Of a DNA stretch of 54,057 nt, positions 20,512 through 45,560 are shown piece after piece. Under the pieces are notes generated by a model, which worked only from the letters and a program-made list of their open reading frames with translations, searched no databases and was not told where the DNA came from. The translations under genes and the position numbers were made by a program. Each line of letters begins with the position of its first letter. The first letter of the stretch is position 1. This stretch comes from a virus (lineage: Duplodnaviria; Caudoviricetes), in the IMG/VR virus record IMGVR_UViG_3300048930_000256, positions 1 through 54,057 of that record. One strand, given 5' to 3'.

Positions 20512-21846
20512 TTACCTTTCTAGGTTCCGGTCTCCTACAGGCTCCCCCTCCGAGTCTCTAAAGTTCGAGCTTGGCATACGAACGGCTCCGTCTGGCTGAT
20601 TGCCGAGCCTGCCTGTAGAGCGCGGGTCATTGGCGTGTGGATGAATAAACTTGTCGTCCATGCCAGCGTAATGCAGCGCTCCTTCTCCAGATAGTGCGCC
20701 TGTTGCAAACATTCTGATAGCCGCGTCTGTGCGGTCTGGCTTCACGACCATCTCGGTGGCATCGACAATGACGTGCGCATCACCCTTGTCTCCAAGGTTC
20801 TTGGCTGTTGGATACACAAAGTTTTCCTCTACTGCCTTAGCGATGATATCGACTATTGGTATGAGGTAGTAGTTCGCTGTGTTCTGGTCTACCTTCCAGC
20901 CGGCCCAGTGATTCGTTCCGCCCATGCCGGTGATTACTTCTGTTGGCAGGTCGATGCCATCACCGTACCTCTTGGCATACGAAGACATGCGCGAGGCGAA
21001 AGCGTCTGCATCGTCAGCCCGCTCTGTCATGAGATGACGAAGGCCGTCAGAGAATTCAGAGCTACCAAACATGATGACAGGAACATAAGCGTCCTGCGTG
21101 TCCCTATCCCTAATGCTGTCGCTCATAGCGCCGCGAAGCCGCTGCTCGAAGTGCGCCTGTGTTCCCGGCTCTGGCTCTCCGCCGTCTAGGTCAGGCCCTT
21201 CAACAAACTCATCATTTGGAATGTAGATGATTCCTGCGCCTGCAAGGCGACTGGTGCCTATTGCTGTATCTGCAAGCTGGTGGACGTACATTGCTTCGAG
21301 TACATCTAGGAGCGCTTCATGTGTAGACCACGCCCTGTCTTCTCTGTCTGGGTCTGGCCGCCATACGCGAAACCACTTCCATTCATTGCCGAGCGGAGCC
21401 ATCTTCCCATTATCACCACGTACGAGAAGCGGTTTGTTCTGGTTCTCGTACTTGTAGTCGCCCTTGCCGATAACCTTCCAAGCTGTCTTCTTTGCTATAC
21501 GATCATATCTATAGGCGAGTATTACTTCTCCGACTAGGAAGATATTTGATGCTGCCCTGCCAATGTCTAGGCTCGATAGCTGCCGCGTTAGCGCGCTGTC
21601 ATTTGTGCCAGTGCCTGTGCAGACAAGCCTACATTTCTTTGTCGTGTTGTTTACGAAGAGCGATGCGTGTGCAACCTCTGGGATGCTTTTGCGAAAGGCG
21701 AGTGTTCGCTGCTGCCAATTCTCGGTGCGGCGGATTATCGACTCTGGGTTTGCTGGGTTTCCCCCGCGTACCACGCCACCACTTGCAGCTACGATTGGCG
21801 GCTTACCGCTAGTCTTTTTTCTTTTGTCAAATATCCCCATGCCCAT
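20512..21846 (-). CDS. portal protein
   Basis: 444 aa; WQ..., RVWRP.P, SRLAGAGII.IP, D.P.E...G.G..NHW..W motifs of cluster-B-type portals. Confidence 0.85.
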   Translation of the reverse strand: MGMGIFDKRKKTSGKPPIVAASGGVVRGGNPANPESIIRRTENWQQRTLAFRKSIPEVAHASLFVNNTTKKCRLVCTGTGTNDSALTRQLSSLDIGRAASNIFLVGEVILAYRYDRIAKKTAWKVIGKGDYKYENQNKPLLVRGDNGKMAPLGNEWKWFRVWRPDPDREDRAWSTHEALLDVLEAMYVHQLADTAIGTSRLAGAGIIYIPNDEFVEGPDLDGGEPEPGTQAHFEQRLRGAMSDSIRDRDTQDAYVPVIMFGSSEFSDGLRHLMTERADDADAFASRMSSYAKRYGDGIDLPTEVITGMGGTNHWAGWKVDQNTANYYLIPIVDIIAKAVEENFVYPTAKNLGDKGDAHVIVDATEMVVKPDRTDAAIRMFATGALSGEGALHYAGMDDKFIHPHANDPRSTGRLGNQPDGAVRMPSSNFRDSEGEPVGDRNLER

Positions 21847-21858
21847 ATCCTACTCTAA

Positions 21859-21929
21859 AGGCGATGACGGGACTCGAACCCATGTTGCAGGTTTTGCAGA
21901 CCTGTGCCTAGCCGCTCGGCCACATCGCC
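21859..21929 (-). tRNA. tRNA-Cys (GCA)
   Basis: GGCGATG/CATCGCC acceptor stem; CAGGT-CTGCAAA-ACCTG anticodon arm; GGTTCGAGTCC T-arm; U73 discriminator typical of tRNA-Cys; no encoded CCA. Confidence 0.95.
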
Positions 21930-22046: not shown

Positions 22047-22979
22047 TCATGATACTAGCATAGCTTTCCGTCTTGCCCGCCTCTTCCTACAGTAGCAGGC
22101 TGCGCACATTCCCCTGCCAGCGTGTTTGCTTTCAGTTGTTCCACACTCTACGCAATGCGCATGATACCTACTCCATGCAGCGTCATCGAGTGGCGGTACA
22201 TAGTTTGGGTCATTGCGGTGCGGGTAGCAGGTGTGACAGTAGCCAGCAGCCATGTGCGGCCTCTTTGTTCGCAAGCATTTCTGGCAGTAGTCGTATTCAC
22301 TTGCCCACCTAAGAGCGCCTGTCTTGTGTGGGTACAGCTCATCTAGGTAGCCGTGTTCCCCTAGGCCGGTGAGCAGCTTGTCTACTTTTTCTAGGGTGAC
22401 TCCTTTGCCCAGTGTTTGCCGGTAGCGTATCTTCCTGACGAACTCATGGTGCAGGCCAGCGCTTTCACAGATGTCTTCGTCTGTGTATCGAGAATAGTTC
22501 TTGTCTAGGAATTCTATGATTGGCGTAGGGCTGACGCTTTCCCGCATATCCCTCTGCCTGCTGCTGGCCTTTGCCCTGCGAACACTATCCTTGTACCGAG
22601 CGCGTGAGCGCTTAATCCTTGCCCTTTGCTCCTTAGGGTTTTGCCTTCGCTCTTTTCCTATATCGCTATAGCACTTCTTGCACCTAGGGATTAGGCCGTG
22701 CGTTGTACCGCTTCCTTTCTGATGGTAATAGTTTTCTCGTGGCTGCCAGTCTAAGCAGCGGGTGCATCGGTAGATGGTTTCTCCTTCTACCTTCTTATGG
22801 AGGAACGGGTGCATAGCCTTCTTTGTTTTAGACACTACTGCTACTGCTGCTGCATCGAAGTAAACGCGGCCACCCTCTTTCTTCCTACCTATCATCCCCC
22901 GAGCTGCCCACCGCTCCAGTGTTGATGGGCTGACCTTATACTTCTCGGCTACATGTTTGGTGCGCATCCACTCAGTCAT
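22047..22979 (-). CDS. multi-domain DNA-binding protein (MerR/Xis-like HTH, CxxC fingers, second HTH-like region)
   Basis: N-terminal VAEKYKVSPSTLERWA..G; CTRC..CKKC; two C-x2-C..H..G.C-x2-CY repeats. Confidence 0.7.
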   Translation of the reverse strand: MTEWMRTKHVAEKYKVSPSTLERWAARGMIGRKKEGGRVYFDAAAVAVVSKTKKAMHPFLHKKVEGETIYRCTRCLDWQPRENYYHQKGSGTTHGLIPRCKKCYSDIGKERRQNPKEQRARIKRSRARYKDSVRRAKASSRQRDMRESVSPTPIIEFLDKNYSRYTDEDICESAGLHHEFVRKIRYRQTLGKGVTLEKVDKLLTGLGEHGYLDELYPHKTGALRWASEYDYCQKCLRTKRPHMAAGYCHTCYPHRNDPNYVPPLDDAAWSRYHAHCVECGTTESKHAGRGMCAACYCRKRRARRKAMLVS

Positions 22980-23208: not shown

Positions 23209-23304
23209 TGCAACATACTACACTAAGTCTTCTTCTGGGGGAAGTGTCTGGCCGTAGGAATTGGCCTGAAAAATTTTTCGGGGTGTCCTGTTTTACACGC
23301 GAAA

Positions 23305-23560
23305 TATAATGAACCCTATAATGATATATCTCATGATATCTACTAGCATAATACCTATCATGATATACAAAATATATAATTAAGCATCATAATATATAAT
23401 TAAGCATTATAGTTCATAGACAATATCATGACCTATTAATTAAAAAAAGATATCATGATAGTAGTTTATCTAAAGCATTATAGTTCTTATTCAATTCATT
23501 ACCCAATAAATTAAATAACTATCATGATAGTAGTTTATCTAAAGCATTATAATTCATTAT
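23305..23560. repeat. AT-rich non-coding repeat/palindrome array (candidate origin or pac/terminus)
   Basis: AATATATAATTAAGCAT x2 (23371, 23391); a 32-bp direct repeat at 23451 and 23520; TATCATGATA palindromes at 23356, 23451 and 23520. Confidence 0.8.
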
Positions 23561-23565
23561 AGGCT

Positions 23566-23889
23566 TCAACGCCCAAGGATATAGTCTGCGAGTTCTTTAC
23601 GCTCAATGAGCGTTGAGCCAAGTTTATGCTGATAGTTTCCTTGACGGTATCTCCGTGCGCTATAAACCCAGCGCTCTAAGTCGCGCACTCTCCAAATGCG
23701 AATACCTGATGGAGATACATAGAAAGGCTTAGGGAAATTGTAATGCTTGAATTTTCCTTTGCTGCCCATAGAGGAGATAAGCTGATTGCAATACACAAGG
23801 CTTATCCCCAGAACAGCAGGCAGCTCTGATTGGAAAACAATAGAATTGAGTGGAACACTCTTCATCATCGTATCGCCAGTATGAATCAT
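23566..23889 (-). CDS. AlpA/Xis-like winged-helix regulator, leaderless
   Basis: ELPAVLGIS...FPKP...IRIWRVRDLERW; TGC-TATCAT-N6-ATG at 23889. Confidence 0.65.
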   Translation of the reverse strand: MIHTGDTMMKSVPLNSIVFQSELPAVLGISLVYCNQLISSMGSKGKFKHYNFPKPFYVSPSGIRIWRVRDLERWVYSARRYRQGNYQHKLGSTLIERKELADYILGR

Positions 23890-24240
23890 ATACACATGAT
23901 AGCACAGAGCGATACAACCATATACCAAGCACTATAAATCGCAAAAACATTATAGGAAGCAGAAGGAAGAGCAGAGAGAATCCCTATAATGAAAGAGCTT
24001 CCATATAACAAACTGGAAGAAGTGCAAAGAGTAGTAGGGGAAATGAAAAAGGGAAAATGAGTGTTTTAGCCAGCTCCCACTTGTCTTTCCCTCGGCTGGC
24101 TTTTGGTGTGTTAGTACCCGAATTGTTGGAATTTGCAGGGGTTTTATATTGCGTAATTGTGAGTGTCTTCCATCGCAAATTCGCCGATACTATAGGTGTA
24201 AGGTCAATCACGATTGACACTATTGACGGGAGATATCGCG

Positions 24241-24480
24241 ATGCCTAAATTAACGAGCGAACAACGTGCCCGCCGGCGTGACGCCAAACGGGTTGAATTA
24301 GCGTATCCTGAGCTACCGGATACTATGCGCAATTCACCTTTCAAGCGCAATTTGCGTAGTGAGCGCGATATACGCTTGACTAGCGGGTTAGGCGCACCAG
24401 ATATGAATTCACGCAGTACGCGCAAGGTTCCTCGCACGGACGGGGATTCTGGTAGGTACTTGCAATACCGCGCCAATTAG
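24241..24480 (+). CDS. hypothetical basic early protein
   Basis: GGGAG RBS before ATG 24241; TACTAT -10-like element upstream. Confidence 0.55.
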   Translation: MPKLTSEQRARRRDAKRVELAYPELPDTMRNSPFKRNLRSERDIRLTSGLGAPDMNSRSTRKVPRTDGDSGRYLQYRAN

Positions 24481-24643
24481 CTAGACGACAATTCAAGCCC
24501 CCTACGGGGGGCAACCATGATAACCGTTTCCGGCATGGTACGAGAATTCGGAATTCCCGAATTGTAGTGTAGAATTCAATTTCACGATTGAATTGTACGG
24601 TGCAATTCCGCGCCGAATTAAACTCAACGAGAGGATATATGAC

Positions 24644-24997
24644 ATGAGCAATTCAATCAAAATTTTCGTTTCTACAGGAAACGACGCTGCCCCGCAAGTA
24701 TTGCGGGCAGTAGCATCACCAACAATTGCGGTCGATGCTTGTAGGTCAGTCATCGCACAACAATTGGGCGATGAAACGGCAGACAAATTATTCGGAATTC
24801 GCGTACCCACTGAGCGCGGTTTCAAGCGTTCCGCGATGGAACGTGGAATGATTTCCGGCCTACGTAGTGGGGAAGGTTTCGCTACTATGGCCGGTGGCAT
24901 CACGGTGGCCGCCGCCGCCGATATGGATACGGCTATCGACGCTATAGCGGACGTTGAGCGGTTGGCAACGATTGGCCGCGATATCCTAACCTATTAG
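24644..24997 (+). CDS. hypothetical early protein
   Basis: GAGGA RBS; followed by a strong terminator. Confidence 0.7.
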   Translation: MSNSIKIFVSTGNDAAPQVLRAVASPTIAVDACRSVIAQQLGDETADKLFGIRVPTERGFKRSAMERGMISGLRSGEGFATMAGGITVAAAADMDTAIDAIADVERLATIGRDILTY

Positions 24998-25002
24998 CCT
25001 AT

Positions 25003-25076
25003 ATGCCCGTGGTGGGGATTCCTGCCACGGGTATTTTTTTGAAATTCGCGTACCCGTCAATTTGGCGGGTATTTTT
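25003..25076 (+). terminator. two tandem intrinsic terminators
   Basis: ATGCCCGTGGTGG...CTGCCACGGGTAT followed by a T-run; then TACCCGTCAA-T-TTGGCGGGTA followed by TTTTT. Confidence 0.75.
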
Positions 25077-25121
25077 ATAGCGGGAATTCCGCGCAACGGC
25101 CAAATTTTTGGGAAGGAAATT

Positions 25122-25250
25122 GTGAACGTATATCTCACCTATAAGCCAATTGGCGTGAACCGGAAAATTTTCCGTACACGTGAAACAGCAATTCGAGGGG
25201 CTGCATGGATACGTGCAGAGAAAGGAATGAAAATTCTATGGAAGGACTAA
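25122..25250 (+). CDS. small hypothetical early protein
   Basis: AAGGA RBS and GTG start; overlaps the next gene. Confidence 0.4.
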   Translation: MNVYLTYKPIGVNRKIFRTRETAIRGAAWIRAEKGMKILWKD

Positions 25251-25531
25251 GTACATACTGGGTTTGCGTGGATTGCTACATGCTACACGTAAACAATGAA
25301 TTGCCGGACGGCGTGACCGAACATAATTTTTTGTCGAATTTGGTCGATGAAGAATTGTATACCGGCCTGCTGTACGAGGAACATTCGTGCGGAAAGAAAA
25401 TTGATGACGATTTTAATATCGGGTGTGAGTGCGAACACCAAGAATTTTCTTGGAGTACGTGCGACGGCTGTAGCTCAACACTTGGCGGGCATAGGTTCGC
25501 CATAACGGGAAGGTATAAGTATGCGAAATAA
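25238..25531 (+). CDS. hypothetical Zn-binding early protein
   Basis: CVDC...FSWSTCDGC..LGGHR motif, recurrent in phage early regions. Confidence 0.7.
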   Translation: MEGLSTYWVCVDCYMLHVNNELPDGVTEHNFLSNLVDEELYTGLLYEEHSCGKKIDDDFNIGCECEHQEFSWSTCDGCSSTLGGHRFAITGRYKYAK

Positions 25532-25856
25532 ATTTAAGTCAAACGGATTCATGAGTCAGGAATCAATTTATATTGCCGACAAAATCGGTGATTCAAAATA
25601 CTACACGAAGGGAGGATTCCTAAATTCGTATTCACTGGCCTGCGGATACATAGAATCGCTGTGGGTAGGCGACCATAGGATTTCTATGGGATTCGAGGGC
25701 TGTTTCGACGTAAAATTTGCCGGAAATCTTCACGGCGAATATATCCGTATATGGGAAGGATTCGATTCTATAGGCGAGGCTAGGGTAGCGTTCCTACGCC
25801 TATGTAAATGGGTAATCGCTGCATCTGGGAAAGATGAAAGGGAATTTGTTCGATGA
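25521..25856 (+). CDS. hypothetical early protein
   Basis: 111 aa, overlapping operon arrangement (YSLACGYIE motif). Confidence 0.7.
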   Translation: MRNKFKSNGFMSQESIYIADKIGDSKYYTKGGFLNSYSLACGYIESLWVGDHRISMGFEGCFDVKFAGNLHGEYIRIWEGFDSIGEARVAFLRLCKWVIAASGKDEREFVR

Positions 25857-26050
25857 AACCTGAGACACCTATTCGCAGAATTCAATTCAACGATGACATT
25901 GAAATTGAAGTCTATGTAAATGGAATTGCCACAGTCTGCGTAGATTTTGGCGATTATGTTAGCTGGCGCAAATTCATGTGCTGGGAAAATGAAGACGAGC
26001 TGCTAGAGATGGTAGCAGACTACATAGAAAGGGTGAATGATAATGGATAA
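25853..26050 (+). CDS. hypothetical early protein
   Basis: ATGA overlap with the upstream gene. Confidence 0.6.
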   Translation: MKPETPIRRIQFNDDIEIEVYVNGIATVCVDFGDYVSWRKFMCWENEDELLEMVADYIERVNDNG

Positions 26051-26957
26051 GACGCTAGAAATAATTGCCAGTATGTTCAAGCAAAATACTGGGGTCGCGC
26101 TATGCGATAGTGGCGGCCACAATGGGCGCGGCTGGCAACGTCGCGCAGATAAATCACTAGAGGAATTAGCGCGTAGCTACGGGAAAATTGATGCCTATGG
26201 CTGGGTAGATAAAGAGGGTAAGAGCAATCTTGATTTCTACCCTGTTGTCAATACAATAAATTGGCTCAACGATCGGCTATGCTACGACGATGACCTGAAT
26301 AGGCTCATGGATTTATTCATATCGCAAGACGAAGATATGGATTCGTGGGAACAAAAATCTTCGTATGAGCTTCGAGAGGAATTTCCTGCATGGCTACACG
26401 CTAGAGCAAACGAATTCCTAGACGACGGCGGATCGTATTGTCCGGTGACGGACATAGAGCTAACAGAATTTCTTGAAGATGAAAGCTCTGAATGGGGAAT
26501 CAGTGACCCTATAACAGAAAATTCGTACAACTACGACAACACGCTCGACAACATAATTTTATTCACAGCGTTTCAGGGATACTGTGACGCGATTGTGATT
26601 CTACAGGTACACAACGGGGCAGATGCTAGAGGCGGGTACACGATGCCGAAGGTATTCCGCACCAATGACAGTGATGGAATCTACGGTATGCTTGATTTCA
26701 ATAGGGCTACTGTGTACTGCAATGAGTGTGATTCAAACTGGGAATCTGACTACACTCTAGGCGACATTCAAAATCTGCCAGCAATAATTTGCGAGAGCAG
26801 TATCGAAGCTGCTGCCAGAGCGAAAGGCTCATGCGAGAATCGTATCGAAGAGCTGGATATATCGAAAGCAGACTGGCATCACATTGTCTACTGCAAGGAA
26901 ACTGGGCAAGTATATTGCCCGAAATGCGGAGAGGGAACACTGGGGGCATCATCATGA
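26037..26957 (+). CDS. conserved acidic phage early protein (NTG..DSGG..GR.WQR / H.G.D.RGGYT type)
   Basis: 306 aa with recognisable conserved motifs and C-terminal CxxC pairs; function unknown. Confidence 0.8.
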   Translation: MIMDKTLEIIASMFKQNTGVALCDSGGHNGRGWQRRADKSLEELARSYGKIDAYGWVDKEGKSNLDFYPVVNTINWLNDRLCYDDDLNRLMDLFISQDEDMDSWEQKSSYELREEFPAWLHARANEFLDDGGSYCPVTDIELTEFLEDESSEWGISDPITENSYNYDNTLDNIILFTAFQGYCDAIVILQVHNGADARGGYTMPKVFRTNDSDGIYGMLDFNRATVYCNECDSNWESDYTLGDIQNLPAIICESSIEAAARAKGSCENRIEELDISKADWHHIVYCKETGQVYCPKCGEGTLGASS

Positions 26958-27313
26958 CAGAAACACTATCAATGCTAGAAATGAAAATTGATTCGTGCCT
27001 GCGAGATGAAAATTCTGGTGCGTCAGTATTCGACATGTTGCCAGCATGGAAAGCTGAATATGAGTATGTAAACGGAATCGAAGTAGAGGGTAGCGGCGGA
27101 CTGACGCTACTCGACCACTATATGCGAATGGCAATGATTGATTCTGAATACGATGAAATCAAATACGTTCATGACGATTTTGTTATGAGCAGAATCGGTA
27201 GGTGTGTGTTCACACTCAACGGCTCAGGATTCTACGCAGCATGTCTGCATGATTCCATTGCAGACGCAGAAAAATTCATGAACGAATACTCGGAGGATAC
27301 AGATGAAGTATAA
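26954..27313 (+). CDS. hypothetical acidic early protein
   Basis: ATGA overlap at 26954. Confidence 0.65.
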   Translation: MTETLSMLEMKIDSCLRDENSGASVFDMLPAWKAEYEYVNGIEVEGSGGLTLLDHYMRMAMIDSEYDEIKYVHDDFVMSRIGRCVFTLNGSGFYAACLHDSIADAEKFMNEYSEDTDEV

Positions 27314-27854
27314 GGTCGGAACAATAGTAAAGAAAGTGAACGGCGTAGATAATTTTCTAGCGTTCAACATACCAGACAAGGTTGCGTATAAATGGATACG
27401 TGAGAATGGAGATGACGAGCATAGATTCGTACCTACGCAGGATTCTGATATCTATTACGATGATGAGGTGTCGTATAAAGAATTGTGTGTGACGCTCGAC
27501 AATGCTGGGCATAGGGATATACAGCCGCCAACGATACGCAATAAGCGCGAACACCTTTACAATGAATTGGCTGACATCGCTGGCAGCATACTGTTCGCTT
27601 GGCTGAAAGAGCGTGTTGGATTCAATGGCTCTACAAATCTTGCCAAGAGCATTGAGGAAATAGCAGACCACGAGTACGGCATAGGAACAGCCAAGTATAT
27701 TTGGGCTGGGATTGTTGCAGAAATCTACGACTATGAACCAGATGTATGCACAATCGCCATTGTGCAGTATCATTACATAAAGCTCGACGAGGTTCCTACA
27801 CAACTAAAGGCAAGCGCAGTAGATGACTACTGGGAAAAGTACGGCAATGAATAG
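27303..27854 (+). CDS. hypothetical early protein
   Basis: GGAGG RBS; 183 aa. Confidence 0.7.
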   Translation: MKYKVGTIVKKVNGVDNFLAFNIPDKVAYKWIRENGDDEHRFVPTQDSDIYYDDEVSYKELCVTLDNAGHRDIQPPTIRNKREHLYNELADIAGSILFAWLKERVGFNGSTNLAKSIEEIADHEYGIGTAKYIWAGIVAEIYDYEPDVCTIAIVQYHYIKLDEVPTQLKASAVDDYWEKYGNE

Positions 27855-28077
27855 CGTAAGGGAAATGATGATAGGCGAAATGATACTTGGCCTAGTGCAG
27901 ATGAAAATTTTCTGCAACATCACGGGCAAGGTGTTGGACTACAGGACATGCAAGGTGTTGTTCGATAAAGACGGTCTGCCAGAAGATGTTATCCATGAAT
28001 CTGCCGAAATACCATCAGAGATTGTGGAAACACTGGAAGGTCTTGGCTACACAATCAAATCACAGAAAGGAAAATGA
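27847..28077 (+). CDS. hypothetical early protein
   Basis: Overlapping operon arrangement. Confidence 0.6.
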   Translation: MNSVREMMIGEMILGLVQMKIFCNITGKVLDYRTCKVLFDKDGLPEDVIHESAEIPSEIVETLEGLGYTIKSQKGK

Positions 28078-28078
28078 T

Positions 28079-28309
28079 ATGACCTACTTAGACACATTGA
28101 TGGAAGAGAAAGGTATTGATGACTACGATAGCTTCACCTTCGAGCATGATGGAGAAATGCACATCATGGAATATGGGTACATTCGGCAGGCTATCAACAG
28201 TGCGTCAAAGAAAGAACAGGAGGCCATACATAACACGCTACGGCAAATCGATTTCAGAAATGGCCGCGTAGAAAACTATCTAAAGCACCTTGCGCGAGCA
28301 TTGGTATAA
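28079..28309 (+). CDS. conserved hypothetical phage protein (YLDTL.EEKGID...IDF.NG type)
   Basis: AAGGA RBS; recognisable motif. Confidence 0.7.
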   Translation: MTYLDTLMEEKGIDDYDSFTFEHDGEMHIMEYGYIRQAINSASKKEQEAIHNTLRQIDFRNGRVENYLKHLARALV

Positions 28310-28327
28310 AGGGAAAGGAGAACGAAA

Positions 28328-28672
28328 ATGATGCAGTATAGCTTTACAATCACAATAGATGGAGATGACCTTGAATATACAGAGCTTCGTCCTGCACACT
28401 ATGATGACGAAGACTTCGACCATGAAGCGCTCGACGAGTTCATGGACAATGTTGTGTCTATCATGGAGGAATCCTATCAAGAGAGTAGCTTCTACAACGA
28501 CCTGAGAGAAGCATGGGCGTATGCCAAGACCTGCGCAGATAAGCCCGAGCTTCACCACCCCGACTGTGACTTCAAGGTTTCTTCGGACGCTAAACATGCC
28601 GCTGAAACCTTTGGCACTGACGAGAAGATAGAAGTCCACGAATGTAATCTTGGCTGCTTAGGAGGAGAATAG
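28328..28672 (+). CDS. hypothetical very acidic protein
   Basis: AAGGAG RBS. Confidence 0.7.
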   Translation: MMQYSFTITIDGDDLEYTELRPAHYDDEDFDHEALDEFMDNVVSIMEESYQESSFYNDLREAWAYAKTCADKPELHHPDCDFKVSSDAKHAAETFGTDEKIEVHECNLGCLGGE

Positions 28673-28674
28673 AA

Positions 28675-28875
28675 ATGGAAGACCTATGTATCAACTGCGA
28701 GCGACCGGAAGAAGAGTGCGATGACGAGTATGTTTGTCTGGAAACACAGGCGTACATATCCCTCATGGACGTTTTGAAAAAACATGTTCCACAAGAGGCT
28801 ATGTCAGAGGTTGATATGGCTTTAGCAAGTTGGGGCGAAGCCGTACAGGAGCTAGGGCACTTCAATGGCTTATAG
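28675..28875 (+). CDS. hypothetical protein
   Basis: GGAG RBS. Confidence 0.6.
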   Translation: MEDLCINCERPEEECDDEYVCLETQAYISLMDVLKKHVPQEAMSEVDMALASWGEAVQELGHFNGL

Positions 28876-28900
28876 CTCGACTTACCAAAAAGGATAAATC

Positions 28901-29311
28901 ATGAACATCGACTACCAAGTAAAATACAAAGACGCTATACGAGAAGCCAAGCTGCTCCTATCTGACAACGGTGAGAACCCAGAGTATGACAGAGGTGTGG
29001 TGGAGATTATTGCCTACCTGTTCGATTTGGGCGATGAGCCAACCACGCAGGTGTGCGCAGATTTGGGGCTATCTTATCCAGAATATATCCCCTCGCTTGT
29101 TGAAACGGTTGAGGTTGCTGCTTCAAGAGTACACCAAGAGATAGAAATATACTCAGCAAACGAGCTGGTATCAGGAACGCCCATAGCTTGCGAGCTTATG
29201 AATATGGCGAGCGAATGGGCTGACATGTACCCAAACGCAAAGCAGGCGTATGCGGTAGTAAATAGGTATCGACGAGAGCTGGCTGAGTTGGCAGAAAAGA
29301 GCAGAGTATGA
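28901..29311 (+). CDS. hypothetical protein
   Basis: AAGGA RBS; NPEYDRG motif. Confidence 0.7.
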   Translation: MNIDYQVKYKDAIREAKLLLSDNGENPEYDRGVVEIIAYLFDLGDEPTTQVCADLGLSYPEYIPSLVETVEVAASRVHQEIEIYSANELVSGTPIACELMNMASEWADMYPNAKQAYAVVNRYRRELAELAEKSRV

Positions 29312-29661
29312 ATATCGAAGAGCTACATGAAGAGATAAGCAACTCGAAGCCTATTGGCTGCTGGCTAACAGGTGCAGACTATGAAGCAGAAACCATAGAC
29401 ATGTTCGCAAGAATGAGAGATGGAAGAAAGATAGTTGCAAGATTCAACCGCAAGCAATCTTTCGTAAGCCTCTACGTCGAAGAGATGGGACAGCTACAGC
29501 ATAAGGAGTGGTACAAAACACCAGCAGAAATTATGCTATCACTGTTCGGGTACTTCAATGCCCTGCCCATAGATGTAGACGAGTTCGATGGTGATGAACG
29601 CTTCGATGCAATGGAAGACTACATTGAAGAGGCATACAAGAAAGTAGGTATCAGGAAATGA
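29308..29661 (+). CDS. hypothetical protein
   Basis: ATGA overlaps on both sides. Confidence 0.7.
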   Translation: MNIEELHEEISNSKPIGCWLTGADYEAETIDMFARMRDGRKIVARFNRKQSFVSLYVEEMGQLQHKEWYKTPAEIMLSLFGYFNALPIDVDEFDGDERFDAMEDYIEEAYKKVGIRK

Positions 29662-30119
29662 AATACAAGAGCGATGTACGCAAAAAAGAATACAGGGATA
29701 CAAAAAACTATCGACTGGTACAAGTAAGTTATGGTCTTAGGTATATCAAGGGGAACCAACTACCGTACTTCTTCGCTGTGGGTAGCGCGTGGGAGTATGG
29801 GAATCTCTCAGCCAGTCCGAATGTTGCCGGCTATTTGTCTGACCTACGTGAGATTGATGATGAGCTGAAGCCATTCGTACAGCTACATCTCAGTGACACA
29901 GATGGAGTTCCGATACACGCCATAGATAATGGTTGGTACTGGTATCACGGTGGAAAATTAGAAACCTGTGCAGACGCTCTAAGAGTGAAGTTATCAGACC
30001 TGCCTACTGGTATGGAAAGCAAAAAAGAATTCTCAGAATTCGTAGACACCCTACGACCTACATGGAAGGAGCTGGCTACCGAAACAATCCTCAAGCATGA
30101 CCTCAAATACACAGAATAA
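29658..30119 (+). CDS. conserved hypothetical phage protein (LHLSD..G.P.HA..NG.Y motif)
   Basis: 153 aa; ATGA overlap. Confidence 0.7.
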   Translation: MKYKSDVRKKEYRDTKNYRLVQVSYGLRYIKGNQLPYFFAVGSAWEYGNLSASPNVAGYLSDLREIDDELKPFVQLHLSDTDGVPIHAIDNGWYWYHGGKLETCADALRVKLSDLPTGMESKKEFSEFVDTLRPTWKELATETILKHDLKYTE

Positions 30120-34879: not shown

Positions 34880-35298
34880 TTCCTAAACAAGAACGCGACA
34901 AGATGCGGCCGGTCTACAGTATTGAAAACGAAGCTTATCGTGACGATTGCGATATTACTCGCATTTACTTGATTCAAGCACTCGATCATGCTGATGCGAT
35001 GGACGACCTACTCGCCGAGCGTGATGCTGAAATCAAAAGGCTTACTTTGCAGAACCATTGTTGCCGCCAGTTTAGCGACCTATCCGGCCTAACCGTGGAA
35101 GAAATCGAACGAGTAGGTTCGTGCGGGTGCGTACAAGCGAAGAGGTTGTTAGAGCGTATGGCGGACGCATTGAAAGCCACAATGAAGCACTTGCATCCAC
35201 ATGCAACAGGATCAACACCAGACGGGTTGGCTGATTTTGTGGAAGATTCGCTGGTTATCCTTGCGGAGTTTGACGCGATGAAACGAGGCAACCAATAA
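34870..35298 (+). CDS. hypothetical protein
   Basis: GAGG RBS; operon packing. Confidence 0.65.
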   Translation: MALIPKQERDKMRPVYSIENEAYRDDCDITRIYLIQALDHADAMDDLLAERDAEIKRLTLQNHCCRQFSDLSGLTVEEIERVGSCGCVQAKRLLERMADALKATMKHLHPHATGSTPDGLADFVEDSLVILAEFDAMKRGNQ

Positions 35299-35549
35299 TG
35301 GGATACGCACAATACACGCTAAGTGACGGACGAGAAGCTGGATACGCAGTACAGGCAACATGTGATGAGCCAAACTGTGACGCTAAAATAGATCGTGGTA
35401 TGGCGTACTGCTGCTTACCAGTAGGAGGAGGCGAGCACGGTTGCGGCCACTATTTCTGTTCAGACCATTTGACCTATAGCCTTGACGTTCCGAAAGGCGA
35501 AAGCCAATCATGCTTTGAGTGTGACAAGCTGAACGGAGGCGCGGAATGA
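35298..35549 (+). CDS. small Cys/His-rich phage protein (GY.V.ATCD...C...IDRG..Y.C type)
   Basis: Recognisable motif; TAATG overlap. Confidence 0.7.
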   Translation: MGYAQYTLSDGREAGYAVQATCDEPNCDAKIDRGMAYCCLPVGGGEHGCGHYFCSDHLTYSLDVPKGESQSCFECDKLNGGAE

Positions 35550-35767
35550 GTATTCATATCGAAATAAACATTGATTGCGACGGTTGGTTAACGGCAGGAC
35601 AAGAATGTGAAATGCGCGCCAAACACATACAAGAAGAAGATAACACCGCTTTCCCAATGGATGAAGGGTGGGTGACAATATCCGACGGCTCGCTCGATGA
35701 TTATTCAGTTCAGGGTGAACACTATTGTGGGCCATGCGCGAAACGACTAGGAGTATCGGAAAAATGA
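35546..35767 (+). CDS. small Zn-binding hypothetical protein
   Basis: CDG...C...GW...HYC..C; starts at a repeated junction. Confidence 0.6.
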   Translation: MSIHIEINIDCDGWLTAGQECEMRAKHIQEEDNTAFPMDEGWVTISDGSLDDYSVQGEHYCGPCAKRLGVSEK

Positions 35768-36021
35768 TGACCGTTCATGAACTAAAAATCCAGCCACAAT
35801 ACCTTAGAGCAATTCAGCGACACGAAAAACTATTCGAGGTACGCCTTAACGATAGAGGCTACCAAAAAGGCGATTACCTACACTTATGCGAGATAAGCGA
35901 AAAGAACGGCCTTCGCACAGGTCAATCAGAGTACGTCAAAGTCTTATATGTACACAGCGGGCTTGGTATGGCAGAGAATTATGTGTGTATGAGCATCGAA
36001 GTAATAAAGGACGCGGAATGA
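35764..36021 (+). CDS. DUF3850/ASCH-PUA-like protein
   Basis: HELKI.P.Y...K.FEVR.NDR.YQ.GD.L.L.E. Confidence 0.8.
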   Translation: MMTVHELKIQPQYLRAIQRHEKLFEVRLNDRGYQKGDYLHLCEISEKNGLRTGQSEYVKVLYVHSGLGMAENYVCMSIEVIKDAE

Positions 36022-36236
36022 ATACCGTCAATATGAAGCTAGAAGGTACAAGCTACACAGCTACCGCGTACCGTTGGGATGGTGGATCAGTGGACATAAA
36101 TATCAGTAAGGATGATGGTGGTTGGGGTGGGTGCGGGCACCCGGGCTATATCTCCTTGACGCGCAATGATTTGGTCCTGCTACTCGCAGCGGTCGATTAT
36201 GAGCTTGGTATTGCAATGAAACGAGGCGCGGAATGA
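36018..36236 (+). CDS. hypothetical protein
   Basis: Starts and ends at CGCGGAATGA junctions. Confidence 0.6.
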   Translation: MNTVNMKLEGTSYTATAYRWDGGSVDINISKDDGGWGGCGHPGYISLTRNDLVLLLAAVDYELGIAMKRGAE

Positions 36237-36406
36237 ATGAGTATTCCCCGCTAGAAATTCTCGAAGATTATAAGTACAGCATGGCCTATGGATGCAGGGA
36301 GATTCTTCGTGAAATGAATAAACAAAATTACGGAAAAGCGAAAGAAATGATTGAGCGACTGATATTTGATTATGGTAAAGAAGATGATGTGGGGTATCGC
36401 GGATGA
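36233..36406 (+). CDS. small hypothetical protein (57 aa)
   Basis: MNEYSPLEIL...YRG*; bounded by ATGA overlaps. Confidence 0.55.
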   Translation: MNEYSPLEILEDYKYSMAYGCREILREMNKQNYGKAKEMIERLIFDYGKEDDVGYRG

Positions 36407-36843
36407 CTATATTCAGACGCAAGAACAACAAGCAAAAACAGCTCGCGTCGAAGCATGTCGTGCAATCCGCAGAAGCAGGCTTCCCACAGGTATCAGGAGA
36501 GATTCGAGACGCGATTCGTGAGGATATTAAAAAGCTCAAGCGCGAACTAGCACAGGGCGGCTACTTCACAGGATTTAAGCCAATCATCATGCACGAGAAG
36601 GAATCTATTATGCGAAATTGCGGCTGCCAAAACCGTCACAGATGCAGTTATCATGAAGGGCACGTAGACGGTTATGCACAAGCGGAGAAAGACATCGCAA
36701 ACGCGATACGCACCGGCCGAATCGTTTCAAACATGCAACCCGCAACAGGTGACGATTGCGCTCATGGTGTGATCAGCTATCACGACTGCACTGAATGTAT
36801 CGCAGAGGGCATCGAACATGGCGAGCATCGGAGTAGCAAATGA
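36403..36843 (+). CDS. hypothetical Cys/His-containing protein
   Basis: 146 aa; ATGA overlaps. Confidence 0.6.
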   Translation: MTIFRRKNNKQKQLASKHVVQSAEAGFPQVSGEIRDAIREDIKKLKRELAQGGYFTGFKPIIMHEKESIMRNCGCQNRHRCSYHEGHVDGYAQAEKDIANAIRTGRIVSNMQPATGDDCAHGVISYHDCTECIAEGIEHGEHRSSK

Positions 36844-36986
36844 ATACACCCTGCCCAAACTGGGATGACGGCAGACACAACTGGCTTCAAGGTGGCAACG
36901 TATGGTGGAGAGCATGGCACAAACTAACGCCGTGGAAACGCTACCGAGTGTGTGTTAGCTGCGGATACAAGGAGTATACAAAGTGA
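36840..36986 (+). CDS. small C/H/CxxC protein (48 aa)
   Basis: MNTPCPNWDDGRHNW...CVSCG; overlaps both neighbours. Confidence 0.5.
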   Translation: MNTPCPNWDDGRHNWLQGGNVWWRAWHKLTPWKRYRVCVSCGYKEYTK

Positions 36987-37198
36987 GTATTCCTCGGCAA
37001 CATACATGCCATAAATGTGGTTGGTGCTACTACATCATGGAAGATTTGTCGCAGCCTGATTATATGCGCCGGATAGCACAATACGGTCTGCCGTTGTCGT
37101 GTGCGTGGTCGAATCTATGGCTAGGCATCGCGTACGCTTTAGGTATTCCGCGATTAGTGGATTGGTTGAGTAAGACCATACGAAAATGGAACACATGA
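36983..37198 (+). CDS. small hypothetical protein (CxxC, amphipathic C-terminus)
   Basis: AAGGAG RBS. Confidence 0.55.
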   Translation: MSIPRQHTCHKCGWCYYIMEDLSQPDYMRRIAQYGLPLSCAWSNLWLGIAYALGIPRLVDWLSKTIRKWNT

Positions 37199-37481
37199 GT
37201 GAATGGCTACTCGGACTTATGCTAGTACCACTACTCGGCTGGGTTCTATCATGCTGGGCAGAATCTAACAATCATACAGAACCAGATTAACAATCACATG
37301 AAAGTGAGCATGAAAGAGGCCATAACGCTCACTTTTGCGTAAGCCTTACTAGAAGGTTTGCAGAGTAAGGGTTAGTAAGAGCTAGACTTAGTGTTAAGCG
37401 GGTTAATAGCAATTGTATTTTCCATTAAACTGTATTTTCCAACACTAAGAAAAAGGATATTCATAGACAAGGAGAAGATGA

Positions 37482-37763
37482 ATGATGTACGATGACCCAA
37501 TTAAAGTTATAGAGGAAATGTTTAACAAGGAGAGCAATGAGTCGTACGAGGCTGGCCAAGAGAACACGGTCGATGATATATGCCGCTGGCTTGAAAAACA
37601 GTCTAGGTATTGGAATGGCCGGTCTATAAATGCGGAGAATGATATTAGTGATCGCAGGTTCTATGATCGTGCGATTTTTTGCAAAGACCTTGCCCATGAT
37701 ATACGGGCTGGCAAGTACAAGAATTGTTTCGGCGTAGTATTCAAGGCAGGAGAAGATGAATAA
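37482..37763 (+). CDS. hypothetical protein
   Basis: AAGGAG RBS. Confidence 0.6.
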   Translation: MMYDDPIKVIEEMFNKESNESYEAGQENTVDDICRWLEKQSRYWNGRSINAENDISDRRFYDRAIFCKDLAHDIRAGKYKNCFGVVFKAGEDE

Positions 37764-41438: not shown

Positions 41439-42023
41439 ATGACTACCATAATAGACAGATATGACGCAATCCTCCTAGACCCGCCGTGGTATTACCCAAC
41501 CAGTAAGAACAATATGGGCGCGGCAGAGCATCACTATGACTGTATGAGCGATGCTGAGATAGCAGCAATGCCCATCAAGCAGCACTGTGCGAAACATGCG
41601 TATGTATTTGTCTGGGCGACTGGCCCGCTACTACACCGGCAGATACAGATGTTCGAGCATTGGGGGATACACTATCGCGGTATCGCGTATGTGTGGGTTA
41701 AGACCCGTAAGGACGGGCAGATTATGGGCGCAGCAGGTGTGCCGCCTACGTTCACGAAAAGCAACGCTGAACTCTTGCTCATGGGTACGACGTGCAAGAC
41801 TGGTCGGCCATATAAGATAGAGACATATACGGAGCCGCAGATTGTTCTCGCGCCGCGTGGTAAGCACTCTGCGAAGCCAGAGGTATTTCAAGATAGCATC
41901 GAGCGTGTGATAGGGTCTGACAAGCGAAAGCTCGAACTGTTCGCAAGAAGGCAAAGGGATGGCTGGACATGCACAGGCATCGAGCTTACAGGGCACGACT
42001 ATAGGGAAGGGAAGCTGATATGA
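41439..42023 (+). CDS. MT-A70 family N6-adenine methyltransferase
   Basis: DPPW, HY..M, F.W.T, W.K, E.LL, HS.KP and ELFAR...GW...G.E motifs. Confidence 0.92.
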   Translation: MTTIIDRYDAILLDPPWYYPTSKNNMGAAEHHYDCMSDAEIAAMPIKQHCAKHAYVFVWATGPLLHRQIQMFEHWGIHYRGIAYVWVKTRKDGQIMGAAGVPPTFTKSNAELLLMGTTCKTGRPYKIETYTEPQIVLAPRGKHSAKPEVFQDSIERVIGSDKRKLELFARRQRDGWTCTGIELTGHDYREGKLI

Positions 42024-42906: not shown

Positions 42907-43280
42907 TGATAAGCGCTTTATCATCAACGGTTCCCTTCACAGCCAGTCTATGCTTTCATCATAGGCTGGCTTTTGATATGGTACGGGATATGAACGACAG
43001 CGGCAAGATACCAGAAGAATGGTATCCACATATAACAGAGGCAATCAGTAGGTCTACTGGCCTAAAGCCAACTGGAGGGAACCAAGTGAAAGAGCCTAGC
43101 GATATACCAACAATGGCTTTGCTTAATGTAATAGGCGAGCATGAAATGAAAATAGAGAAGCTGGAAAGTCGCGTTTCGATTATTTCGTTTAGAGCGAATT
43201 TTGCCTACGGGATATTCGTAGTAATCATTATGCTGCTTGTTGTTTCTCAGATATTAAACTTGGTGGAGGCTTGGCTGTAG
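42906..43280 (+). CDS. hypothetical membrane protein (C-terminal TM helix)
   Basis: FAYGIFVVIIMLLVVSQIL hydrophobic stretch; the start may lie further downstream. Confidence 0.55.
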   Translation: MISALSSTVPFTASLCFHHRLAFDMVRDMNDSGKIPEEWYPHITEAISRSTGLKPTGGNQVKEPSDIPTMALLNVIGEHEMKIEKLESRVSIISFRANFAYGIFVVIIMLLVVSQILNLVEAWL

Positions 43281-43999
43281 CGCATACCCCAGACGACGCG
43301 CAGCAGTACAGGAAAATACTTCAAGGCGATACCAAGGCTAGAGATAGGATGGTTGAAAAGCATCTTGGTCTAGTAAAGAAAAATGTTGTCTACTATGCTA
43401 GACGCAATCCAGAGATACCACTAGACGACCTCCTGCAAGAGGGGCATATAGGTCTAGTCATGGCGCTCAACAAGTTCGATGTAGACAAGGGGTACAGGTT
43501 TTCTACATACGCATCATTCTGGATTAAGCAAAGGATACAGCGGTTCGTTGTATTCAGCCATCCAAAGTCAGCTACAGCTAAACGCAAGGACATAGAAGAC
43601 TTCATCAATGGAAGAATGAGCGAAGAGCTGAAGCCGCTCTATAGCAATCGGTGCGGCTCATACTCGCCAATAGACTCGCCTGTGAGTAGGTCTGGAGAAA
43701 GTGGACTAGACTCAAACAAGGCAAGCAGTATAGCTGAAATGGCTTACGATGCCTGTCAGATGGAAGTGTCAGAGCTTGTAGAGGACAAGGATGAATGGAG
43801 GCACATGCGCTCCGTCATGATGGATGTCCTAGACCTTAGGGAGCTAACAATCATAGGTATGCGTTTCGGTGTGATGGGATGCACACAGAAAAAGATTGCA
43901 GACATAGCAGATGAGCTTGATATAACCATTGCCAGCCTAAGAAGCATTGAGGCTGTTGCTATGAAGAAGATTCGTGATGAGCTTGGAGTAGAATCATGA
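43271..43999 (+). CDS. sigma-70 family RNA polymerase sigma factor
   Basis: Region 2 DDLLQEGHIGL..A..KFD..KGYRFSTYA.FWI; region 4 L..RE..II..RFG...IA..L. Confidence 0.93.
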   Translation: MAVAHTPDDAQQYRKILQGDTKARDRMVEKHLGLVKKNVVYYARRNPEIPLDDLLQEGHIGLVMALNKFDVDKGYRFSTYASFWIKQRIQRFVVFSHPKSATAKRKDIEDFINGRMSEELKPLYSNRCGSYSPIDSPVSRSGESGLDSNKASSIAEMAYDACQMEVSELVEDKDEWRHMRSVMMDVLDLRELTIIGMRFGVMGCTQKKIADIADELDITIASLRSIEAVAMKKIRDELGVES

Positions 44000-45036: not shown

Positions 45037-45560
45037 GCGAAGAGATAATCCACACAAAACAGACGCCATCATATAGCCGTAGGCCAGATGAGCCAGCGTC
45101 AGACTACGAGGCTTTTGTTGAGTGGTGCAGGATTCCACCATCAAGCAGGTCTACTGGAAACTTCTGTAGGCGAACAGGGTTCCCGCAGAAGGCTGTGAAA
45201 AGGATGCGTGAGAAGTGGCAATGGGATGCTAGGGCGGCAGCGTTCGACGCTGATAGCGTAGCCCTGCGGCCAGACCCTGCATCGATGGAAGAAGAGGCGG
45301 CGCTCGCCGGACAGATTGCTGCTGCAACCACGCTTATCGAGCTTGGCCTACGCTCTATCGAGCTGAAGAACCCATCGCTCATATCGGCAGACAAGGCGCT
45401 AAAGCTTGTAGAGAAGGGCGTGGAGATTCAGCGCAAGGCGCTCGGTCAGGCAGATGTCAATATAGAATTCTCCTCTGGCGACCTAAGCAGGGTGAACAAG
45501 CTTATAGAAGACCTAAACATAGAAGACGCAGAACTGGTAGACGAGGAGCTTGAAGAATAA
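45033..45560 (+). CDS. probable terminase small subunit
   Basis: 175 aa immediately before TerL; E....YEAF..W and KWQW..RA.A.D motifs. Confidence 0.6.
   Translation: MSEEIIHTKQTPSYSRRPDEPASDYEAFVEWCRIPPSSRSTGNFCRRTGFPQKAVKRMREKWQWDARAAAFDADSVALRPDPASMEEEAALAGQIAAATTLIELGLRSIELKNPSLISADKALKLVEKGVEIQRKALGQADVNIEFSSGDLSRVNKLIEDLNIEDAELVDEELEE

Follow-up and report, generated by a model that had tools for sequence, protein, structure and literature searches.

Short words that a phage genome keeps or purges are among the few readable traces of protein action on its DNA. Clusters of the palindrome GATC work via methylation state at the E. coli origin of replication (SeqA) and at the pac site of phage P1, and known methylation clusters of this kind cover 160–250 bp. 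The window analysed here, the whole of the IMG/VR virus record IMGVR_UViG_3300048930_000256 (54,057 bases; Duplodnaviria, Caudoviricetes) from an uncultured tailed phage, carries an array of another 4-bp palindrome, AATT, with 67 copies in 3.84 kb (24121–27960) at the start of its early gene arm. Protein readers of AATT have been described. It is reported as the commonest core among the best sites in Lsr2 binding arrays, G/C neighbours are tolerated by Lsr2 through an AATT(G/C) motif, and the AT-hook of HMGA1 sits in the minor groove of AATT, whereas H-NS prefers TpA steps instead (PMC8476142). Many mycobacteriophages are reported to need Lsr2, which moves to their replication zones, and a stretch of low G+C that separates divergent genes in phage Fionnbharth has been proposed as a plausible Lsr2 site (PMC10066036).

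AATT occurs 50 times in 24121–25980, 17 times in 25981–27960 and once in 27961–29940. These are exactly the counts given in a first-pass annotation of the sequence, and the six copies it had placed in 24541–24600 are found at 24545, 24552, 24560, 24573, 24578 and 24591. The G+C contents of the three stretches are nearly equal (0.468, 0.450 and 0.455), so composition is not the source of the difference between them. For 24100–26000, base composition predicts 9 copies and a maximal-order Markov model 31, while 500 dinucleotide-preserving shuffles gave 16.6 +/- 3.5 with a maximum of 26. When all 136 strand-symmetric 4-mers were scanned for outliers across all 2-kb windows, AATT at 24001–26000 was the strongest local 4-mer excess in the genome (50 copies, where the remainder of the genome predicts 5.2; P=1e-31). 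The runner-up words, AAAT and ATTC, overlap AATT, and the first independent word is TATA, from the A+T-rich spacer, at about 1e-10. Outside the zone, AATT stands at 0.66 of the Markov expectation for the genome.

Most of the copies were created by silent codon choices. A silent chance was defined as a place where synonymous codon choice could spell AATT with the protein unchanged; such chances are taken at 42 of 79 places in the genes of 24057–26957, as against 90 of 1047 in all other genes, and their frequency is barely higher in the zone (9.3 vs 7.4 per 100 codons). Permuting synonymous codons within genes gives 25.1 AATT where 41 are observed (summed over seven genes, 24241–27854), and six of the seven lie above resamples drawn with genome codon usage (P<=0.013). 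Sites occupy all three codon phases, and the word is denser in non-coding DNA of the zone (45.9 per kb) than in coding DNA (14.4 per kb). G+C at third codon positions (GC3) is 0.47 in the zone, as it is in the early genes that follow. Codon shifts in the zone are limited to commoner AAA, CAA, GAA, AAT and ATT, accompanied by a parallel increase in some G+C-rich codons. Because both the dinucleotide and the codon-preserving controls are exceeded, the enrichment is not due to A+T content or amino-acid composition, and the word is selected at the DNA level. The first-pass annotation had proposed that protein coding does not explain the motif and had suggested a codon-preserving shuffle; the proposal holds on both silent-chance use and permutation, and the excess persists under that control.

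The array is one-sided and graded, starting at the point where the two gene arms diverge and running only into the plus arm. Its onset at 24121 is preceded by 277 AATT-free bases, and the late-arm genes on the adjoining side use 0 to 8% of their silent chances. From 24121 to 26560 it forms a plateau of 59 AATT in 2.44 kb, through genes and intergenic DNA alike, in which between 0.5 and 1.0 of the silent chances are used per 500-bp bin (0.64, 0.50, 1.0, 0.53 and 0.54 up to 26.5 kb). A tail of eight AATT in 1.4 kb follows (26561–27960), where use is mostly about 0.1–0.2 (0.21, 0.67 in one thin bin with 2/3, and 0.12) and then falls to none of 37 chances at 28.0–29.5 kb. Over the whole, chance use declines by 0.59 logit per kb (r=-0.49, P=1e-14). 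The plateau spans six gene borders, and the drop falls within a run of overlapping starts and stops, with no promoter or terminator gap. It possibly occurs inside a single gene, that of a 306-aa protein (26037–26957), where 7 of 12 chances are taken in the first half and 3 of 15 in the second (Fisher P=0.057). A decay with distance had been described earlier; the drop itself is real, taking the form of a plateau from 24.1 to about 26.5 kb and zero by 28 kb, and not of a smooth gradient. The idea of a positional signal at the DNA level is borne out by the silent-site selection, the one-sided placement and the drop inside the operon.

GATC is nearly purged from this genome (11 sites in 54 kb, about 190 expected), and the zone shares the purge, with two sites where 12–14 are expected. 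Together with its neighbour-like codon usage, this indicates that the zone is not a recent import. Recent acquisition from an AATT-rich donor, which the first-pass annotation had named as a finding that would overturn its view, is rejected on the GC3 common to the zone and its neighbours and on the shared loss of GATC.

Information in the motif is confined to the four core bases, with 0.13–0.21 bits at the flanks. The flank preference amounts to 'not T before, not A after', and most neighbours are G or C or else prolong the A/T run. The 67 sites include GAATTC and GAATTG (8 each), AAATTC (8), CAATTC, GAATTT, AAATTT and AAATTG (6 each) and CAATTG (3), so the emphasis first placed on GAATTC, CAATTC and CAATTG (8, 6 and 3) does not stand, these being no more frequent than other hexamers. 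A cluster of 6-bp targets for M.MunI (CAATTG, 3 of 67) or EcoRI (GAATTC, 8 of 67) was rejected, as the enrichment is of the core only. Flank pairs related by reverse complementation are balanced (31 vs 19), which suits a reader of duplex DNA better than a reader of RNA. A periodicity of about 10.5 bp had also been proposed for checking, and no helical phasing of the sites was found: the best period, 21 bp, has a power of 5.1, below the 95% null of 7.7, and 11.5 bp has a power of 3.8. Without phasing there is no sign of a wrapped or curved complex. Intrinsically curved DNA of the phased A-tract kind was discarded for want of a 10–11-bp periodicity, and a Chi-like array of recombination hotspots because AATT is self-complementary and its flanks are symmetric. 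TTAA, ATAT and TATA are not enriched in the zone.

Relatives of this phage treat the same word in the opposite way. In metagenomes, portal relatives occur at 45–63% identity, including those on 57–62 kb contigs (P0003, P0014, P0021, P0023, P0024 and P0033). Seven close-relative loci (L006, L007, L008, L009, which is the same as L002, L010, L016 and L070; 40.8 kb together) lack AATT altogether, where the Markov model predicts 34.7 copies, and lack TTAA, with 5.8 predicted; none of the other A/T 4-mers, ATAT, TATA, AATA and ATTA included, falls below expectation. The purge is word-specific and extends over the phage family, and more distant G+C-rich loci are nearly AATT-free too. Set against these AATT-free relatives, the array is a trait of this lineage that runs counter to the family habit of removing the word.

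The metagenome scan returned 63 loci, of which only L006 reaches the divergent region, covering about 590 bp of the other arm; comparison of the early arm with relatives extends at most over this length. The matching stretch of L006 has no AATT, and its first gene there is unrelated to that of this phage. Megablast against phage records found no relative, and scans of viral contigs gave only L002, which is cut inside the portal gene, and distant loci, or no relative. The genome scan returned a single relative contig of 5.7 kb (L070; 62% G+C, no AATT). This contig is binned in a metagenome-assembled genome named Candidatus Sumerlaeota (G001; L072–L076), an assignment that is doubtful because the large contigs of that genome have 52% G+C and a normal AATT content (390 vs 383 expected). 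Cultured phages showed no AATT cluster: mycobacteriophage Saintus has 35 scattered sites and Microbacterium phage FuzzBuster two in 54.8 kb. The analogous gradients that the first-pass annotation had suggested looking for in related genomes were accordingly absent from the matching stretch of L006, from Saintus and from FuzzBuster. Sequencing run X1 contains 0.14 of the sampled words of this genome and yields five short, low-depth contigs within 23.6–26.9 kb. They are identical to the record or differ by one letter, leave much of the stretch uncovered and show no ends; as X1 is possibly the source sample, they add no independent evidence.

Kinship beyond these loci suggests an actinobacterial host. 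Among 846 portal matches, at identities of up to 26%, every organism or host name among those listed (5 rarer organism names and 52 host entries fall outside the list) is a phage of an actinobacterium. For the 306-aa early protein, 30 of the 32 matching records are Gordonia or Mycobacterium phages, in which its relatives sit near the right end of the genome. A host search in the atlas returned viruses only.

The genes under the array are small and mostly without family. The array starts in a hydrophobic open reading frame (ORF) of 63 aa on the plus strand (24057–24248; four AATT), which is a mechanical gene call only. It is followed on the same strand by an ORF of 79 aa (24241–24480), basic (isoelectric point, pI, 11.1) and without a family, with five of its six silent chances used, and by one of 117 aa (24644–24997), without relatives, with 6 of 12 used. 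The sole match to the 117-aa protein among 5.8 billion proteins is itself, and the predicted folds of the 79-aa and 117-aa proteins (pLDDT 59 and 51.6) are too poor for a structure search. Three further early genes on the plus strand (25205–26050; 108, 111 and 65 aa) use 7 of 8, 5 of 11 and 5 of 7 chances, and the first of them matches phrog_3034, of unknown function. The 306-aa protein (26037–26957, plus strand) is acidic and matches phrog_11344, and two more plus-strand genes, of 119 and 183 aa (26954–27854), lie under the tail. In Saintus, the relative of the 306-aa protein (gp90; L071, 45593–46405) is found near the beginning of the leftward early operon, where it adjoins gp89, annotated as an anti-restriction protein.

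The densest non-coding block, with nine AATT in 163 bp (24481–24643), holds a 22-nt imperfect inverted repeat (24559–24580 and 24587–24608) that is 82% complementary. A second block (24998–25204), with eight AATT, contains two terminator-like hairpins (25003–25034 and 25050–25072). No Rfam family reaches threshold, the only match being a sub-threshold one over this double terminator. On the other side of the onset, the spacer at the divergence point has a G+C of 0.39 per kb bin, and the repeat search located an A+T-rich block at 23300–23560 with two repeats of about 70 bp and several ATCATGAT and ATCATGAT(A) palindromes. This block is a candidate promoter, operator set or origin next to the array. 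Five promoter-like matches lie on the plus strand of the divergent region, a number not above that in shuffles, and the cumulative GC-skew minimum is at 23948. The first gene on the late-arm side (23566–23889, minus strand) encodes a helix-turn-helix (HTH) protein that is 44% identical to L006:954–1286 (E=2e-29). Its label as an AlpA/excisionase type is a reading of the sequence, as no library matched.

A 127-base repeat at both ends of the record is an assembly overlap at an arbitrary place, giving a circular map that does not mark the physical ends. The genome (49% G+C) has two gene arms that diverge at about 23.2–24.1 kb and converge at about 50.1 kb. The minus arm encodes a TerS-like HTH protein (22047–22979, 1.1 kb from the array), tRNA-Cys (GCA; 21859–21929, minus strand, between the TerS-like and portal genes), the portal (20512–21846), a MuF-like protein, the capsid protein, the tape measure, tail fibres and an endolysin. 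The plus arm carries the small family-less genes and encodes a PD-(D/E)XK nuclease, ERF recombinase, DnaB helicase, SSB, dNMP (deoxynucleoside monophosphate) kinase, an MT-A70 adenine methyltransferase (41439–42023, plus strand; Pfam PF05063, E=9e-29), a sigma-70-family factor with regions 2 and 4 (43271–43999, plus strand), which probably serves the late (minus) arm, and a large terminase of 807 aa (45550–47973, plus strand) at the end of the early/middle arm. The position of the large terminase gene, 21 kb from the TerS-like and portal genes and on the opposite strand, is an unusual layout. No integrase turned up among the phage proteins scanned. The GATC sites are at 9857, 21501, 26271, 26431, 34984, 35210, 35391, 36085, 36771, 37650 and 37665. 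Seven of the eleven cluster in 2.7 kb (34984–37665) at near-normal density, and this block may be a recent mosaic insert.

We infer that a protein reads the array, and by the same route which protein that is and what its binding does. Tentatively, and as a possibility well short of probable, we favour reading the array as a set of minor-groove sites that serve an Lsr2-type or AT-hook nucleoid protein. A graded array of bare AATT over the promoter-proximal early operon would form a narrow-minor-groove platform. The likeliest reader, an Lsr2-type or AT-hook (RGR) nucleoid protein of the host, would occupy many sites with low specificity, join along the DNA and coat the first 2.4–3.9 kb of the early arm. 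Such binding could shut off the early genes after a first burst of transcription, or it could shield or organise the DNA, for instance as the seed of a replication zone. A minor-groove reader fits the kilobase scale, the unphased sites, the position beside a divergent promoter region and the kinship with actinophages. With 67 AATT in 3.84 kb the DNA is rich in the sites that Lsr2 prefers, though it is not A+T-rich overall. A landing zone for such a protein had been one of the options of the first-pass annotation; with a published preference for AATT it remains the best fit among them, with any Lsr2 of the host putative and none encoded by the phage.

Several observations weigh against a nucleoid protein as the reader. 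The host is known by inference only, the capsid protein and endolysin have no match in phage records, and a G+C of 49% is low for Lsr2-bearing actinobacteria. The window encodes neither the N-domain nor the DNA-binding domain of Lsr2, no H-NS domain and no convincing RGR hook, the four weak pattern matches including none in an early protein. The Candidatus Sumerlaeota bin that holds a relative has no Lsr2 match (its binning being doubtful, as noted above). A loosely specific nucleoid protein should be served equally well by plain A+T richness, and G+C is not lowered here (GC3 is as in the neighbours), only the AATT-making codons being shifted. A word fixed so exactly would be more usual for an enzyme that recognises 4 bp. 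The relatives and cultured actinophages examined (L006 in its matching stretch, Saintus and FuzzBuster) have no like array, and the unphased sites do not point to a wrapped or curved complex. A more ambitious form of the landing-pad reading seems doubtful to us: the recoded early genes would be a graded pad drawing an Lsr2-type host protein onto the first-expressed, and perhaps first-entering, DNA, as a timer, a shield or a replication seed, and the removal of AATT by the relatives would be evasion of the same protein and not of a restriction enzyme. If that were true, one 4-bp word would act as a two-way dial of the interplay between phage and nucleoid.

The exactness of the word leads to an unlikely alternative, in which AATT is the target of an adenine methyltransferase, either the phage MT-A70 enzyme or one of the host, and the cluster acts via methylation state, distinguishing incoming, fully methylated DNA from newly replicated DNA. 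A 4-bp palindrome without flank preference is what Type II enzymes recognise, the AATT-core enzymes EcoRI, MunI and MluCI are named together as relatives (PMC4081073), and a purge such as that in the close relatives (none against 34.7) is the usual mark of restriction pressure. The array also adjoins the GC-skew minimum and the A+T-rich repeat block, a possible origin. The gene at 41439–42023 makes its product a possible AATT writer, but the enzyme is not tied to this word: NCBIfam gave no meaningful match, and the best solved relatives are chains deposited simply as MT-a70 family proteins (E=2.5e-16). The earlier suggestion of a target cluster for this enzyme is right about the gene, but its MunI-type form is weak, with CAATTG at 3 of 67 sites, and its placing of M.MunI in the MT-A70 family found no confirmation in the literature consulted. 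Methylation gives no account of the grading over 3.8 kb or of the one-sidedness, methylation clusters are not known to be graded on a kilobase scale, and a 2.4-kb plateau with a 1.4-kb tail is not a compact cluster of a few hundred bp. AATT elsewhere in the genome, at 0.66 of the Markov expectation, is compatible with protection but does not require it. Somewhat less likely again is a phage-encoded reader of unknown family, made early or delivered with the virion, that would recognise AATT and regulate or protect the early arm. Neither relatives nor a family are found for the first early genes, one of their products is strongly basic, and an array peculiar to this phage among the relatives examined is what a private reader would leave; on the other hand, 4 bp is too short for the usual sequence-specific phage regulators, and the low-confidence folds of two of the first early proteins give no lead, and no candidate was found.

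An improbable reading puts the array at the end of the virion DNA that is ejected or packaged first, where it would act in DNA entry or packaging as a terminase landing zone, entry ratchet or end shield. The layout resembles that of L5-type actinophages, with structural genes running from one end and early genes inward from the other, and by this resemblance the ends would fall in the divergent region by the array, 1.1 kb from the TerS-like HTH gene; the array takes up about 4.5 to 7% of the genome. Against this stand the circular assembly with its 127-bp overlap at an arbitrary place, the large terminase gene 21 kb away, and the point that ends are not fixed if packaging is headful. Known terminase recognition sites are also far shorter, at a few hundred bp against 2.4–3.9 kb here, which leaves the TerS landing zone proposed in the first-pass annotation a weak option. 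Very improbable is a zone with no function of its own, whether an AATT-rich import, a by-product of early-gene codon preference or an AAUU signal at the RNA level. AAA, CAA, GAA, AAT and ATT are all commoner in the zone and phage early regions are mosaic, but codon usage otherwise matches that in the early genes that follow, GATC is purged here as elsewhere, and AATT exceeds permutations that keep the codon usage of each gene. The still denser non-coding DNA and a drop inside an operon, apparently inside one gene, speak against it as well, and for an RNA signal the flanks lack strand asymmetry and no Rfam family reaches threshold.

An enrichment of a palindrome on the kilobase scale, graded and written almost wholly at silent sites, is the reverse of the textbook purging of palindromes, and literature searches found no description of such an array. 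If a nucleoid protein reads it, the array would offer a natural substrate on which to study how phages use or escape xenogeneic silencers, a recoded copy being the obvious control; that question was opened by the reported requirement for Lsr2 in mycobacteriophage growth (PMC10066036). If a methyltransferase reads it, it would be a new kind of epigenetic timer. With either reader, the array shows that a dense second code can be written into early phage genes at their silent sites.

Among known systems, the Dam GATC clusters of E. coli oriC (SeqA) and P1 pac are alike in being an over-frequent 4-bp palindrome in coding and non-coding DNA, placed by a candidate origin and packaging genes, and an adenine methyltransferase is encoded by this phage. 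They span about 160–250 bp and not 2.4–3.9 kb, this genome purges GATC, and methylation of AATT here is hypothetical. The stoperators of cluster A mycobacteriophages are likewise many copies of a short word within and between genes, selected as protein sites that act on transcription; they are 13–14 bp long, asymmetric, oriented with transcription and spread genome-wide, whereas the word here is a 4-bp palindrome restricted to a single graded zone. Saintus, itself a cluster A phage, has no AATT cluster. Restriction-word purging, including that of first-entering DNA in T5 and T7, also concerns short palindromes, and the relatives here purge AATT; the sign is opposite, as this phage packs AATT in. 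Lsr2-bound regions share the AATT core with G/C neighbours (as reported in PMC8476142) and the kilobase scale, and the site proposed in a phage shares the place beside divergent genes (PMC10066036), with the actinophage kinship of the portal on this side. Lsr2-bound regions are plainly A+T-rich, while the array, to which Lsr2 binding is putative, has a G+C of 0.45–0.50 and sites that are written into codons, graded and one-sided. The array differs from the known phage word arrays (GATC clusters, stoperators and Chi clusters) in its word, its writing into silent codon positions, its graded one-sided shape and its opposite sign to that of its relatives.

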